Origin: an uncultured Actinomycetes bacterium
GTDB taxonomy: Bacteria > Actinomycetota > Thermoleophilia > Solirubrobacterales > 70-9
Direction: 5' to 3'
Assembly (NCBI GenBank): GCA_963797665.1
Contig: CAWCQE010000023.1
Span: 219,845 to 283,844, forward strand
DNA length: 64,000 nucleotides
Positions 46,367 through 64,000 of the stretch are shown here, one piece after another. The position numbers and the translations under genes are program-made. The stretch's first letter is position 1; every line of letters begins with the position of its first letter. The notes under the pieces were generated by a model. The model worked only from the letters and a program-made list of their open reading frames with translations. It was not told the origin of the DNA and did no database searches.

Positions 46367-46440
46367 GCCCCGATAGCTCAGCTGGATAGAGCGACTCCCT
46401 CCTAAGGAGTAGGCCGCAGGTTCGAATCCTGCTCGGGGCG
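46367..46440 (+). tRNA. tRNA-Arg (anticodon CCT)
   Basis: Cloverleaf: acceptor GCCCCGA/TCGGGGC, D-arm TAGCTCAGCTGGATAGAGC, anticodon stem ACTCC/GGAGT with loop CTCCTAA (anticodon CCT), T-arm GCAGGTTCGAATCCTGC; 74 nt, no encoded CCA. Confidence 0.85.
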
Positions 46441-46493
46441 TCCGGCCCCTCGCAGCCTCGAACCTGCGGCACCGCTCGCCGTCCGGGCTCGCT

Positions 46494-46522
46494 GAGGCTC
46501 GAATCCTGCTCGGGGCGTCCGG
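46494..46522 (+). repeat. Direct repeat of the tRNA-Arg 3' end (att-like scar)
   Basis: AGGCTCGAATCCTGCTCGGGGCGTCCGGC repeats tRNA positions 46420-46448 (AGGTTCGAATCCTGCTCGGGGCGTCCGGC) with 1 mismatch, 55 bp downstream of the tRNA; marks start of lower-GC accessory region. Confidence 0.6.
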
Positions 46523-46678
46523 CGTTCTCCCTGCAAGTAGGCGCTTTCCGGCTGCGTTCACGGGCTGCGCCAGCCTTCATCGCTCGCCACTTCATCGCCA
46601 CTACGATCCTCGAACGCGGCCAGGCGGCGAGCAATATCGGCCCCGGCACCCTCGATAAGCGTCGCTCCGACATTTTCA

Positions 46679-47137
46679 TTAGTCGGTGGCGTGGGTTACG
46701 GGCTCGCCTTTGAAGGCTTCATCGACAAGCTTGTCAGCGTCTCCGTTCATCTCGCGGGGAACCCAGGACAGTCGCCATGACTTGAAGGGCTTGAGGGCTT
46801 CCCCGACTTCTTCGTAGAGCTCGGTAGCTCGCTCATTCTTGTTCCATCCACCCGTTATCTGGTTCACGACGTTCGCGGAGTCGCTGAACGCGGCGACATA
46901 GAGGAGTCGTTTCCCGGCGGCGAGCTTGAGACCGCGAATCAGAGCGAGGTACTCGGCCTCGTGTGGACTGCCGACGGGCCCCACTTTCTCGGCCACCCTG
47001 GCCAACACCGCGCCACAGCCGGGTTCCCGGAGAATGACCCCGATGGCGCCCTCCGCCTGGCCTTGCTCGTTGGCTCTCTTTCCTCCGTCGATGAACAGCA
47101 GGTAGTAGCCCTTCTTGAGGTCATCAACCATGAGCAA
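46679..47137 (-). CDS. RNase H (type 1, RVT_3/RNase-HI-like) family protein
   Basis: DGGKRANEQGQAEGAIGVIL (first Asp), EAEYLALIRGLKLAAG (Glu), YVAAFSDSANVVNQITGGW (Asp), REMNGDADKLVDEAF (Asn/Asp) match the RNase H catalytic DEDD arrangement. Confidence 0.7.
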   Translation of the reverse strand: MLMVDDLKKGYYLLFIDGGKRANEQGQAEGAIGVILREPGCGAVLARVAEKVGPVGSPHEAEYLALIRGLKLAAGKRLLYVAAFSDSANVVNQITGGWNKNERATELYEEVGEALKPFKSWRLSWVPREMNGDADKLVDEAFKGEPVTHATD

Positions 47138-47553
47138 CTCCTAACGTGGGCATCACTAGCCCTCCTTTTCTCGCCACTTCTCTTTCAGTCCTTCCCGCTG
47201 GTCCCGAGAGTGTCGCTCCCGCGTGAAAGGAGCAGTGCGAAGGCTCGCGCGTGCGAGCTACCGCCGTCTCTCCTAGCCAATGGGGATCGGGCCGAACAAA
47301 TAACACGAGGGCGAGAGCCTGCTCCTCGACGCTGCGATGAGTTGGCAATCCGCCTATCTGCCGAGACTAAGGACCTGCGCCGGCCCGCGGTGCCGAAGAC
47401 AGGAGGTGCGCAGGCGGAAACGATCCTCGAACCACTCGCCGCCGTTGAGGACGTGGCGTAGGCTCACGTACACCCTGTAGCACGCCGCGGCCCGCTGAGG
47501 CACCAGGCGAGGCAAGGCGTGTTAAAGCCGATGCCTCGCCCCATGACGCCTCT

Positions 47554-47736
47554 TTACATTCCGTCGGCTAGCTGGGCTACACGCTGGAGCGTCTCGCTCT
47601 CGTTGCCATCCCGGGGGACAGTGACCGTGATCTCGTCGTTGAAGATCTCAATCATGGTCGACCCGGCGCCATCCTGATCGTCCATCTCCTCCTGCTCGTC
47701 GTGCTCTTGCTCCTGCTGCTTCTTCTGTTGGGCCAT
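47554..47736 (-). CDS. Small highly acidic protein (60 aa), unknown function
   Basis: MAQQKKQQEQEHDEQEEMDDQDGAGSTMIEIFNDEITVTVPRDGNESETLQRVAQLADGM; upstream of RNase H on same strand; followed by 9-bp-stem hairpin GGCGAGGCA...TGCCTCGCC (47520-47554). Confidence 0.35.
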   Translation of the reverse strand: MAQQKKQQEQEHDEQEEMDDQDGAGSTMIEIFNDEITVTVPRDGNESETLQRVAQLADGM

Positions 47737-61580: not shown

Positions 61581-61979
61581 CTACTCCCGCAGCCCGGCGG
61601 CTTCGAGGGCCTCGTCCCGGCTCGGATATTCCGTGATCTTCAGGATCTTGCCGTCCTCGACGCTGAACACTCGAAACAGGTCCGTGTGAATCCAGGTCTG
61701 CGCGTCGCTGCCCTTCAGGCCGCGTCCCGCTACCCGCTCTACGGTGACGACACAATCTCCGGCTTCGATCATCTCGTCGGCTTCGACCCGGTACTCGTCG
61801 TACGAGTCGGACAACGAATCGAGGAATCGCGTGATCTCGTCGATTCCCTGGAAGGTCCCCGAGCCGCCAACGAGCACCAGCTGTATTTCTGGGTGCCAGA
61901 TTTCGTGGAGAGTGGACCAGTCTCTCGCGCCCCGCGCGGCGACATCTCGCCGCACGACCTCCACGTTCCCCTGCGACAT
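61581..61979 (-). CDS. NTF2/SnoaL-like (ketosteroid-isomerase-fold) small protein, intact paralog
   Basis: MSQGNVEVVRRDVAARGARDWSTLHEIWHPEIQLVLVGGSGTFQGIDEITRFLDSLSDSYDEYRVEADEMIEAGDCVVTVERVAGRGLKGSDAQTWIHTDLFRVFSVEDGKILKITEYPSRDEALEAAGLRE*. Confidence 0.65.
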   Translation of the reverse strand: MSQGNVEVVRRDVAARGARDWSTLHEIWHPEIQLVLVGGSGTFQGIDEITRFLDSLSDSYDEYRVEADEMIEAGDCVVTVERVAGRGLKGSDAQTWIHTDLFRVFSVEDGKILKITEYPSRDEALEAAGLRE

Positions 61980-62184
61980 CGCCTACGCAGTATCTCGCTC
62001 TTGCGAATCGGTCGCGGCGTTTTTGCGCGGCGCAGGCGCAGAGTGAGCCGGGCGCCAGTCCAAGAAATAAGCGGACCCTTACCAAGAGCCGCAGCCACCG
62101 AGCGGGCGAGTTCCTGGACAGTCGGGACCGCGATGCGGAACGACGTGGCCGGCCGCGAGATGCTTAGCATGGCCGTACCTCGAC

Positions 62185-63096
62185 ATGGGCGATGATGCGG
62201 AGAGAAACGAACGCGAGCTTCGGGGGCTGCGCCTCGAGGTCGACGAGCAACGGCGCGATATTCGCAAGGCCGACGATCGAGAGCGCCGTCAGGACACGCT
62301 ATTAGCCCGCCTTCGCGACGAGGCGGCGGTGCGTGATGACGAGGCGGCCGCGCTGCAGGATCGTCTCGAGGCCGCCGAGCATGAGCTCGGGGACCTGCGC
62401 GCGATTCGGGATGCGCTTACCCCGCCCGAGTTGCCGCAGCGGCCCGGCTTGGATCTCGCCGCGGCCTTCTTGCCCGCCATCGCCGAACAGGTAAGCGGCG
62501 ACTTCTACGTGGTGGCTGAGGGGCCCCAGGATTCCACCGTTCTCGTAGTCGGCGATGTAGTCGGCCACGGTTTGAACGCGGCACGCCGTTCAGCGTTCGT
62601 TCGGACAGCGTTTGCCGCGACAGCCCCCTTCTCCGACGATCCGTGCCGGCTGCTGAGTTGGGCGAACACCGCCCTGGTCGAGCGGGCCGGCATCACCAGC
62701 GAGTTCGTCACCGCCGGCTGCGTTACGTATCTGCCGGACGAGCAGCTCCTGCGCTGGGCCTACGCCGGCCATCCCCGGGCGCTGTGGCTGGACAGCGGCC
62801 AGGAACTCGTGGCGCCCACGCAGGGAACCCCGCTCGGGATTCGGCCGGACCTGGGACTCACCGAAGGTTCGCAGCGGTCGGTGGCCGCCGCGGGAGTGCT
62901 GCTCTACACCGACGGCCTAACCGAAGCACGGGGCGCCGACAGGCGGTTCGGGATCGGCGGCGTCCGGGCCGCCCTGGGCGGCCTTAGCCGGCCCTCACCG
63001 GCCGAGGCGGTCGCCATCCTGCGCGCGCGCGTTGCCGACTTCGGGTACGGCGCCCTGACTGACGATCTCTGCCTACTGGCCGTCCGCGTCCGCTAG
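62185..63096 (+). CDS. PP2C-family Ser/Thr phosphatase (SpoIIE/RsbU-like) with N-terminal coiled-coil
   Basis: SGDFYVVAEGPQDSTVLVVGDVVGHGLNAARRSAFVRTAF (metal-binding D..GDV.GHG), ...LLYTDGLTEARG (second Asp block); N-terminal 100 aa Glu/Arg-rich coiled coil. Confidence 0.75.
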   Translation: MGDDAERNERELRGLRLEVDEQRRDIRKADDRERRQDTLLARLRDEAAVRDDEAAALQDRLEAAEHELGDLRAIRDALTPPELPQRPGLDLAAAFLPAIAEQVSGDFYVVAEGPQDSTVLVVGDVVGHGLNAARRSAFVRTAFAATAPFSDDPCRLLSWANTALVERAGITSEFVTAGCVTYLPDEQLLRWAYAGHPRALWLDSGQELVAPTQGTPLGIRPDLGLTEGSQRSVAAAGVLLYTDGLTEARGADRRFGIGGVRAALGGLSRPSPAEAVAILRARVADFGYGALTDDLCLLAVRVR

Positions 63097-63293
63097 CGAT
63101 TGAGCCGGTCAGTCGGACCCTGCTGCGCCAAGGGATCGGGCTGCACGCGGGCGAGGACGCGGCTGCCGTCTGCTTTGAGCACGATGCAGCCGACGTGGCC
63201 GGCGATCAGCGGCTCCAGTTCGCCTTTCAGGAGGTACCGCGAGGCCCTCGCCGTCGTTTTTCCGCACCCCTCAGCACCTATCTTCCTCGCTAG

Positions 63294-63441
63294 TGAGCGA
63301 GATATGGCGATGGTCAACAACACCCGAGAACAACGGGAGAACAACGGACCGAAGCCCCGAAGCTCTACACCGAGCTTGGTCCCGCCGAGGCTGCCCGGCG
63401 GACCGGGATTAAACGGGCGACGATCTCGAAGTAGGCTAGTC
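63294..63441 (+). pseudogene. Remnant of a transposase N-terminal helix-turn-helix (IS630/other HTH-first family?)
   Basis: MAMVNNTREQRENN... then, in +2 frame, ...EAPKLYTELGPAEAARRTGIKRATISK*; HTH-like (ELGPAEAARRTGIKRATISK) peptide with no downstream catalytic domain. Confidence 0.3.
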
Positions 63442-63750
63442 GCGAGGGCGTGACCTCCGACCGCGCGGAGCGCACTCGCAAGGCGACCGAGTTTCCTCGT
63501 TTGGCGGTTCCCGCCCTCGAAGCCGCCGGCCTCTCGCAGTAGGCGATATCGCAGGAGGACGCCGAGCGCATCCGTCGCGCCCTATGTCTGCAAACGAGAC
63601 GGTCCGACGACGGCGACGGAGCAGTTGTGGGCTGAGGACGCCCCTTATCGAGAGCGATCAACGCGGCACCGTCGGAACCTTGATCGCCGCGGGACGTGCG
63701 ATTTGGTTTCATTGCAAACGGGCAATCTCGCGAGTCTTGGGAGGTCGGTA

Positions 63751-64000
63751 ATGGCTGGTATTGAGGCCCTGGATTTCGATTCACCCGACGAGACGCGGAC
63801 ACCCGACAAGACCCGCGTCGACGTAATCCGGGTCGGGGGCACAACCGCCGCCCGGATGAGATTCGAACCGGGTTGGAGGTGGTCGGAGTGCGTGAAGCCG
63901 GTCGTTGGCACGGACAGCTGCCAGGTCCGACACGTGGGCGTGGTTCAATCCGGCAGGCTCCACGTCGTGCACGAGGACGGGACCGAGGTCGAGGTCGGGC
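63751..64000 (+). CDS. Cupin-domain protein (partial, runs off window end)
   Basis: GGAGGT RBS; MAGIEALDFDSPDETRTPDKTRVDVIRVGGTTAARMRFEPGWRWSECVKPVVGTDSCQVRHVGVVQSGRLHVVHEDGTEVEV has cupin beta-barrel pattern (…GW.W…H.G.V.SG.L.V…DG). Confidence 0.45.
   Translation, partial: MAGIEALDFDSPDETRTPDKTRVDVIRVGGTTAARMRFEPGWRWSECVKPVVGTDSCQVRHVGVVQSGRLHVVHEDGTEVEVG

Follow-up and report, generated by a model that had tools for sequence, protein, structure and literature searches.

A probable degenerate plasticity zone behind the tRNA-Arg(CCT) gene of an uncultured Solirubrobacterales bacterium

The stretch of DNA analysed here (64,000 nt of contig CAWCQE010000023.1 from an uncultured Solirubrobacterales bacterium, hereafter the window) contains a single tRNA gene, tRNA-Arg(CCT), found with ARAGORN and in agreement with the Rfam call. 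The DNA behind this gene (46.5–64 kb and beyond) was originally predicted to be an integrative element or genomic island inserted at the tRNA. It is probably a degenerate and currently non-mobile plasticity zone at a tRNA gene which is itself a hotspot of recombination and integration across the Solirubrobacterales. Variability sets in precisely where the last copy of the tRNA 3' end stops. The segment behind it deviates in composition, is rich in a clade-specific palindrome and combines, in a mosaic, clade-native single-gene modules (RNase HI, PP2C and patatin; also STAS, RsbW-like, SnoaL, CaCA and PhoD) with frameshifted or truncated genes. Of the original prediction, the accessory and variable nature of the downstream DNA and its deviating composition are retained, whereas the "classic signature" of an inserted element is absent: the repeat brackets 52 nt and no integrase is encoded in the 17.5 kb that follow.

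The duplicated tRNA 3' end and the tRNA locus in relatives

The tRNA gene and the repeat next to it are made up as follows.

46367 to 46440, plus strand: tRNA-Arg(CCT) gene (ARAGORN; Rfam RF00005, 71.3 bits), anchor of the variable region
46418 to 46446, plus strand: repeat copy 1, comprising the T arm, the acceptor 3' strand and the discriminator of the tRNA plus 6 nt (TCCGGC) past the gene
46447 to 46494: spacer of the 77-nt unit, read from the sequence
46495 to 46523, plus strand: repeat copy 2, with one mismatch to copy 1 (T to C at 46498)

The predicted direct repeat of the tRNA 3' end (AGGTTCGAATCCTGCTCGGGGCG) is real, although it had been placed 1 to 2 nt off. Its exact core of 25 nt (46422–46446 = 46499–46523) consists of the last 19 nt of the tRNA gene and the next 6 nt, and it extends to 29 nt with one mismatch (46418–46446 versus 46495–46523); dinucleotide shuffles gave 0 matches. 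No third copy was detected in the window, even when 3 mismatches were allowed, and neither were other full or partial copies of either tRNA half. The two copies are 77 nt apart (start to start) and bracket only 52 nt, and therefore they are not the delimiters of the 17.5-kb segment. When attP sites of phages were searched for in IMG/VR, the 25-mer of the repeat had no match. A candidate phage attP approached via a 22-mer was rejected, since only unrelated phage-encoded tRNAs of other isoacceptors from low-GC phages were matched.

The 52-nt spacer and the second tRNA 3' end form a unit of 77 nt. Positions 46446 to 46472 can be read as the tRNA 3' end in inverted, degenerate form and would pair with copy 2 to give a long imperfect hairpin. 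The same architecture folds in four lineages, with fold energies that are unconvincing compared to shuffles (z between −0.7 and −2.3, and +0.4; two of the four variants are not better). The unit is also found in the relatives L105/L176 and L185, with two copies of the tRNA 3' end each, and in L172/L188, where an exact tandem of the unit results in three copies. Behind the last copy, the DNA is unrelated in each of these lineages; the homology shared between them stops at the end of copy 2 or at most 6 nt beyond. The spacers of the lineages differ from each other at 2 to 17 of 55–56 nt (up to 30%). Three other lineages have the same sequence over the last 22 nt of copy 2, and the window differs from it at one position. 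Since the unit is shared with four other lineages, each with different DNA behind it, an old att-type scar is indicated, and the repeat unit is probably older than the present downstream DNA. One relative, L101, matches the closest relative of the window, L001, at 99.4%, and was taken as the same species; it has the tRNA without the repeat. A neighbour gene in L001/L101 is a putative aldehyde dehydrogenase, judged by its translation. Upstream of the tRNA, L172 shares 100% and L188 99.6% identity with L101, and both were taken as belonging to the L101 species; their downstream DNA is different.

Upstream of the tRNA, the window is syntenic with L001 at about 91% nucleotide identity from 33035 to 46297, ending 70 nt before the tRNA gene. 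The cNMP-binding, thioredoxin-reductase-like protein encoded just upstream (44217–45959) has matches in metagenome-assembled genomes of Solirubrobacterales and Thermoleophilia at 74–91% identity. Downstream, the picture is different. The genes of the segment were found within 10 kb of the tRNA in none of 15 relatives, and the downstream regions of these relatives also differ among each other. When metagenomes were scanned with the full 74-nt tRNA gene, at least 120 contigs carrying the identical gene were obtained. In none of the 120 listed contigs do genes of 46.5–64 kb follow the tRNA, with the exception of one homolog of the gene at the window end in L119. The segment is missing at the same site in L001, L101 and L172/L188. 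At least 39 loci have an upstream flank homologous to 25.7–33.2 kb and 35.2–35.9 kb of the window, and this side of the tRNA is widely conserved. On the downstream side, by contrast, about 70 unrelated groups were needed to accommodate the flanks of 108 loci, the largest comprising 8 loci. Most of the open reading frames (ORFs) in these flanks belong to ordinary families (HipA, SnoaL, patatin, regulators). In L139 and L161, a tyrosine integrase is encoded first after the tRNA, and in L145 an rve-type transposase (catalytic motifs read by eye, not by Pfam). A gene order conserved beside the tRNA in all relatives, free of integrases and of compositional deviation, is therefore not what was found: the relatives are variable downstream, some carry integrases, and the composition of the segment deviates.

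Composition, repeats and gene content of the segment

The mean GC content of 1-kb bins is 0.714 in 1–33 kb, 0.688 in 36–46 kb and 0.664 in 46.5–64 kb (1–33 kb versus 46.5–64 kb, Mann-Whitney p = 1.6e-7), which bears out the predicted GC drop after the tRNA. Measured against 1–33 kb as the reference, the tetranucleotide distance rises abruptly in the 46–48 kb bin, which holds the tRNA (z = 7.6). Most of the later 2-kb bins are found at z values of 4 to 6, with normal values in 54–56 kb, where the CaCA gene is located (z = −0.4), and in 58–60 kb. Karlin delta* was 80 for 46.5–64 kb versus approximately 25 for each half of the reference, a baseline obtained by comparing each half with the whole reference that contains it. 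The deviation is real but mosaic, and bins with long intact genes are native-like. A coding-density metric derived from thresholds on GC at third codon positions did not discriminate.

A perfect palindrome of 26 nt, CTTCTGCTTT-N6-AAAGCAGAAG, sits just past stop codons and is present in at least nine copies in 48.7–63.2 kb and in none in 1–46 kb. It was also found in the relatives L005, L008, L090 and L184 and is therefore clade-wide.

48726–48780 (double), 50087–50115, 51251–51285/51434–51468, 53564–53592, 57500–57531, 60656–60691, 61550–61574 and 63166–63189: copies of the palindrome
51251 to 51468: MITE-like (miniature inverted-repeat transposable element) unit of 218 bp with 35-nt inverted termini (89% complementary, beginning GCGCTTCTGCTT), carrying the palindrome

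Being short, intergenic in many copies and also present in related genomes, the palindrome has the properties by which repetitive extragenic palindromes (REP) and MITE-like repeats are recognised. Like REP, bacterial interspersed mosaic elements (BIME) or MITEs, it occurs in many palindromic copies and in one unit with inverted termini. Unlike these, its copies in the window and the clade cluster in variable regions only, and no transposase of the REP-associated (RAYT) or another type was seen, although no search aimed at one was made. Integron cassettes, considered for the succession of a SnoaL 3' end and a hairpin, were rejected: no GTTRRRY-type attC ends were recognised when the hairpins were read, there is no integrase, the copies are present in both orientations, and the same hairpin stands behind unrelated genes in L005 and L008.

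Among the 209 six-frame ORFs (at least 60 aa) of 46.3–64 kb, no integrase, transposase, phage or conjugation families of Pfam were detected at E ≤ 0.01. The slot adjoining the tRNA, usually the place of the integrase, holds an RNase HI gene. Most of the originally listed genes were confirmed by Pfam or from their translations, in a different order, while the transposase helix-turn-helix remnant of that list was not confirmed, no transposase family being matched in this ORF set at the same threshold. The content had been likened to a defence or stress island. PADLOC gave 0 matches to defence systems with the same ORFs (E ≤ 1e-3); a defence island was therefore rejected, and only a stress-signalling flavour (STAS, RsbW-like, PP2C) remains, which is ordinary for the clade. 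No Rfam family other than tRNA-Arg was found in 45–64 kb.

Close orthologs of three genes were found in other contexts. The RNase HI orthologs share 96% amino acid identity at best, grading to 78%. Those of PP2C reach 97% at best and 71% at the lower end among the best 120 of 1281 homologs (E ≤ 1e-20), and those of the patatin, which are single ORFs of 501–540 aa, range from 93% at best to 48%. In the contigs L199 to L208, nucleotide homology of 91–97% covers only the single gene and about 100–230 nt, and the flanks are unrelated. The RNase HI module (46664–47238) is 91–94% identical to L203–L206 over the gene only; the PP2C module (61958–63098) matches L201 at 97% over 61958–63098 only and L202 at 92% over 62119–63097 only; the match of the patatin gene to L207 (91.3%) is likewise limited to the gene and contains a single 1-nt gap. 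Judged by these comparisons, RNase HI, PP2C and patatin are clade-native, each being a single-gene block in a different context.

Gene decay and local duplication are evident in the segment. For PhoD, the orthologs of L199/L200 match at 61% amino acid identity in two different frames of the window, while the gene of L200 is a single ORF of 554 aa. Compared to L207, the patatin gene has lost one nucleotide at 58391. The surviving fragments comprise four derived from SnoaL, one RsbW-like ORF and one P-loop ATPase, and the local paralogs five SnoaL-related sequences, two STAS, two RsbW-like and two unnamed ones. In 35.2–46.3 kb, nearly all indels compared to L001 are located between genes (the exceptions are a compensating pair at 45544/45548 and one indel at 42688), and thus the frameshifts in PhoD and patatin are not a general effect of assembly errors. 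The gene inventory of the segment is as follows.

46679 to 47137, minus strand: RNase HI-family gene (Pfam RVT_3, E = 1.3e-23)
47554 to 47736, minus strand: putative ORF for an acidic protein of 60 aa (ORF list; no Pfam match)
48300 to 48780, plus strand: SnoaL-like pseudogene with broken frame, then the double palindromic repeat (48726–48780)
48975 to 49742, minus strand: protein of 255 aa with an N-terminal signal-like hydrophobic segment and no known family (ORF list, Pfam)
49852 to 50115, plus strand: 5'-truncated SnoaL fragment ending in ...EALEAAGLRE*, palindromic repeat at 50087–50115
50348 to 51283, minus strand: DUF4389 membrane protein (Pfam, E = 5.3e-16)
51643 to 52050, minus strand: STAS-domain protein of the anti-sigma-factor-antagonist type (Pfam)
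52469 to 52768, minus strand: truncated RsbW-like HATPase_c_2 ORF of 99 aa (Pfam, E = 4.1e-7, profile positions 1–87 of 127), paralog of 60578–61135
52933 to 53292, plus strand: STAS-domain protein (Pfam, E = 1.1e-12)
53522 to 53592, plus strand: SnoaL 3'-end remnant and palindromic repeat (53564–53592)
53900 to 54286, plus strand: truncated P-loop ATPase fragment (GPKGSGKS Walker A motif in the translation)
54299 to 55288, plus strand: Na+/Ca2+ exchanger (CaCA), intact, native-like composition (Pfam, E = 1.2e-25)
55368 to 57316, minus strand: PhoD-like phosphatase with DUF7800 N-domain, frameshifted pseudogene (Pfam)
57834 to 59425, plus strand: patatin-like phospholipase, frameshifted by the deletion at 58391; Patatin domain match in the first frame only
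59485 to 59829, minus strand: DUF6328 protein (Pfam, E = 5e-17)
59849 to 60181, plus strand: protein of 110 aa without Pfam family, paralog of 61186–61521 (33% identity, E = 5e-12)
60578 to 61135, plus strand: RsbW-like anti-sigma-factor kinase (HATPase_c_2, Pfam), palindromic repeat 60656–60691 in the annotated 5' part
61186 to 61574, plus strand: 111-aa paralog of 59849–60181 (gene 61186–61521), then palindromic repeat (61550–61574)
61581 to 61979, minus strand: intact SnoaL_2 protein ending in ...EALEAAGLRE (Pfam, E = 1.9e-13)
62185 to 63096, plus strand: PP2C/SpoIIE phosphatase, RsbU-like (Pfam, E = 2.4e-33)
63510 to 63541, plus strand: SnoaL 3'-end remnant
63751 to 64000, plus strand: start of a gene running off the window (83-aa fragment, no Pfam match); the far boundary of the segment is not reached

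At its two ends, the SnoaL pseudogene (48300–48780) shares 94% and 90% identity with the intact SnoaL gene (61581–61998). SnoaL_2 was matched in two six-frame ORFs somewhere within 46.3–55.3 kb, and one ORF of the same range gave an ORC-CDC6-like match (E = 3.7e-4), which probably corresponds to the ATPase fragment at 53900–54286. Homologs of the gene at the window end are present in L004 (77% nucleotide identity) and L119 (54% amino acid identity), both in other contexts. The two unnamed paralogs (59849–60181 and 61186–61521) flank the gene of the RsbW-like kinase; their products may be unrecognised partner-switching components. As in RsbV/RsbW/RsbU partner-switching systems, two STAS proteins, a HATPase_c_2 kinase (one intact, one truncated) and a PP2C/SpoIIE phosphatase are encoded. 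Unlike in these systems, the genes are scattered, the set is partly degraded and no cognate sigma factor is encoded in the segment. The intact genes would appear to serve ordinary partner-switching signalling, membrane or phosphate functions, without a common function of the segment being implied.

The leader of the RNase HI gene, about 100 nt in length (47138–47238, minus strand), is nearly invariant in four genomes with unrelated flanking DNA. It is located at about 9900–10000 in L203, L204 and L205 and has no Rfam match; its conservation suggests that this 5' region is structured or regulatory. The DNA located 5' of the RNase HI ortholog comprises an integrase/Prim-Pol element in L203 (4135–9831), phage-like genes (S78 protease, VanY) in L204 (1915–9682) and, in L205 (1–9770), a cluster of defence genes (type I restriction subunit, GmrSD, AAA_14). 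These neighbours indicate that the RNase HI gene borders a hotspot there, too, and no tRNA gene was found within 10 kb of the ortholog in L203, L204 and L205.

Variation upstream of the tRNA gene

In L094, the homology upstream of the tRNA ends 15 nt before the gene, indicating that the tRNA ancestrally followed the gene at 35257–35913 without other genes in between. In the window, about 10.4 kb (35914–46297) lie between this ancestral neighbour and the tRNA. They are shared with the L001 species and not present at this position in most relatives, and encode an alpha/beta hydrolase, YccF, CGNR/ABATE, DUF899, an ECF sigma factor with SnoaL domain, TetR, a cyclase, DsbA, the cNMP-binding thioredoxin-reductase-like protein and zf-UBP. 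With this additional DNA of intermediate GC content (0.688), the upstream side of the tRNA is variable as well. In L101, the tRNA is located 5.3 kb past the zf-UBP gene.

Two smaller regions upstream were also conspicuous. Compared to most relatives, 33186–35241 is an insertion of 2 kb; it is common to L001, with about 20 indels of one to two nt between the two sequences, and its ORFs have no Pfam match despite the high GC content, so that it looks like decaying, non-functional DNA. Two long ORFs on the same strand but in different frames (41081–42682 and 41203–43620) meet near 42.69 kb, where about 80 nt of the window are not aligned to L001; a guanylate-cyclase domain is present in the second ORF only. 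This may be either a frameshift or an arrangement of two genes.

Displaced 5' halves of the tRNA (nt 1–39, through the anticodon loop) are located 0.87–2.2 kb upstream of the intact gene in nine loci (L083, L118, L125, L127, L138, L147, L166, L179 and L195), with arrays in L179 (three copies) and L195 (two copies). They bracket cassettes of 0.9–2.2 kb upstream of the tRNA, which, as read from the translations only, encode an apparent retropepsin-like protease, an AAA ATPase, a HEPN-like protein or a tyrosine recombinase. No displaced 5' half was found in the window.

Origin of the segment and alternative explanations

Chromosomal hotspots or plasticity zones with gene turnover are found beside tRNA genes, and tRNA-targeting integrases cross over within the block from the T arm to the 3' end. 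In the proposed course of events, the 77-nt unit would be the scar of an ancient tyrosine-integrase event, that is attL and attR of an element which has been almost wholly deleted. The scar would predate the present downstream DNA and would since have served as the junction for DNA exchange. Later turnover may have comprised integration and deletion, local duplication and repeat-based recombination, with the genes decaying thereafter as selection was relaxed. Like tRNA plasticity zones in general, the locus has one conserved and one hypervariable flank, with accessory signalling genes, toxins and pseudogenes. Unlike those described from complete genomes, it is known from metagenome fragments of an uncultured soil clade.

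According to the Islander study, an island consists of an intact tRNA gene, a displaced cognate 3' fragment and a tyrosine integrase (PMC4383910). Here, the intact tRNA-Arg(CCT) gene at one end and the absence of the segment from close relatives at the site agree with this definition (PMC4383910). The far end, in contrast, has no cognate fragment of the same orientation, the sole fragment in the 64-kb window being 77 nt away, and there is no tyrosine integrase in 46.3–64 kb. Under these criteria, the segment is not a callable island (PMC4383910). It is neither recognisable as a prophage or an integrative conjugative element, as no phage structural, replication or conjugation genes are among the Pfam matches. 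The likeness to Islander islands is nevertheless considerable: a 3'-end copy ranging from the T arm to the 3' end follows the intact tRNA in the same orientation, the DNA behind is variable and compositionally deviant, and relatives have integrases at this site. The differences are the short distance of the fragment, the lack of an integrase and of a second fragment, and a cargo of clade-native genes and pseudogenes. Islander also lists 125 tandem arrays (PMC4383910). Like these arrays or degenerate island remnants, the locus has serial 3'-end copies (two here, three in L172/L188) with variable DNA past the last one. In the arrays each member has its own integrase, whereas here the copies are separated by a conserved 52-nt spacer common to several lineages, and copy 2 is invariant.

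A bounded integrative island, for which a tyrosine integrase would have targeted either the tRNA 3' end or copy 2, with integrase and attR beyond position 64000, is unlikely but has several observations on its side. The tRNA 3'-end repeat lies exactly where the homology to relatives stops, the composition shift begins in the 2-kb bin holding the tRNA, the segment is absent from all relatives sampled, and L139 and L161 have integrases at the same site. It is opposed by the lack of any mobility gene in the 17.5 kb beside the tRNA, exactly where L139 and L161 carry theirs, by the clade-native single-gene nature elsewhere of RNase HI (the first gene), PP2C and patatin, and by a composition that is mosaic and not uniformly foreign; internal paralogs and pseudogenes point to turnover in place. 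It is rather improbable that no integrase was ever involved and that the 77-nt unit is a tandem duplication or a hairpin-forming (terminator-like) trailer of the tRNA in a fast-rearranging, poorly constrained part of the chromosome. The long hairpin formed alike in four lineages, the preserved identity of copy 2 with the tRNA end, the exact tandem amplification in L172/L188 and the mostly ordinary families downstream in relatives would fit such a trailer. The fold energies, however, are not better than those of shuffles in two of the four variants, integrase genes abut the tRNA in some relatives, and L101, taken as the species of L172/L188, is without the unit. Moreover, the repeated block ranges from the T arm to the 3' end, where tRNA-targeting integrases cross over. 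A T-stem-region attP class is listed by Islander for 1836 of its 3919 islands (PMC4383910).

That two Solirubrobacterales genomes were falsely joined by assembly at the tRNA and repeat (about 157 nt, 98% identical between species) is very unlikely. The identity of the tRNA in at least 120 contigs would facilitate such a chimera, composition changes and synteny is lost within one and the same stretch, 46–48 kb with the tRNA, and no independent contig spanning the junction of tRNA and RNase HI was found. Comparable junctions recur in independent samples, however (L172 = L188, L105 = L176), the rest of the assembly is clean, and a single false join cannot explain mosaicism at many gene boundaries inside the segment. 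A further and very improbable reading takes the 77-nt unit as a maintained landing pad, a secondary attB kept identical to the tRNA 3' end despite the drift of its spacer, with single-gene modules being swapped between genomes there and at CTTCTGCTTT-N6-AAAGCAGAAG, which would amount to an undescribed cassette-like gene-shuffling system in Solirubrobacterales. If so, the 5'-half cassette arrays upstream of the tRNA in relatives would be its second arm.

Several points weigh against a degenerate plasticity zone, the preferred interpretation. The far end is outside the window, and an integrase and an attR may lie beyond 64 kb. The intact genes of the segment have a GC content of 0.674 compared to 0.714 in 1–33 kb, in a comparison using raw distances and GC only, in which the null distribution overlapped its own reference; the lower value would also fit an import from a relative of lower GC content. 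The test for close orthologs covered just three genes (RNase HI, PP2C and patatin), and the integrases of L139 and L161 are putative ones, identified solely by motif reading. Finally, copy 2 is invariant beside a drifting spacer, which is not expected of a passive scar; gene conversion, selection or ongoing recombination at this site is needed to account for it.

As an example of variable DNA linked to a tRNA gene, here in an uncultured soil actinobacterium, the locus is ordinary, with no mobility machinery or defence content in view, and it is a cautionary case, as a duplicated tRNA 3' end and a GC drop are insufficient to call an island. For genome plasticity in Thermoleophilia, the att-like invariant copy 2, the clade-wide palindrome confined to variable regions, the single-gene modules shared at 91–97% nucleotide identity in unrelated contexts and the tRNA 5'-half arrays of relatives are of interest. 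Only three features might go beyond the ordinary: the invariance of copy 2, the single-gene modules bounded by repeats and the cassette arrays with tRNA 5' halves.

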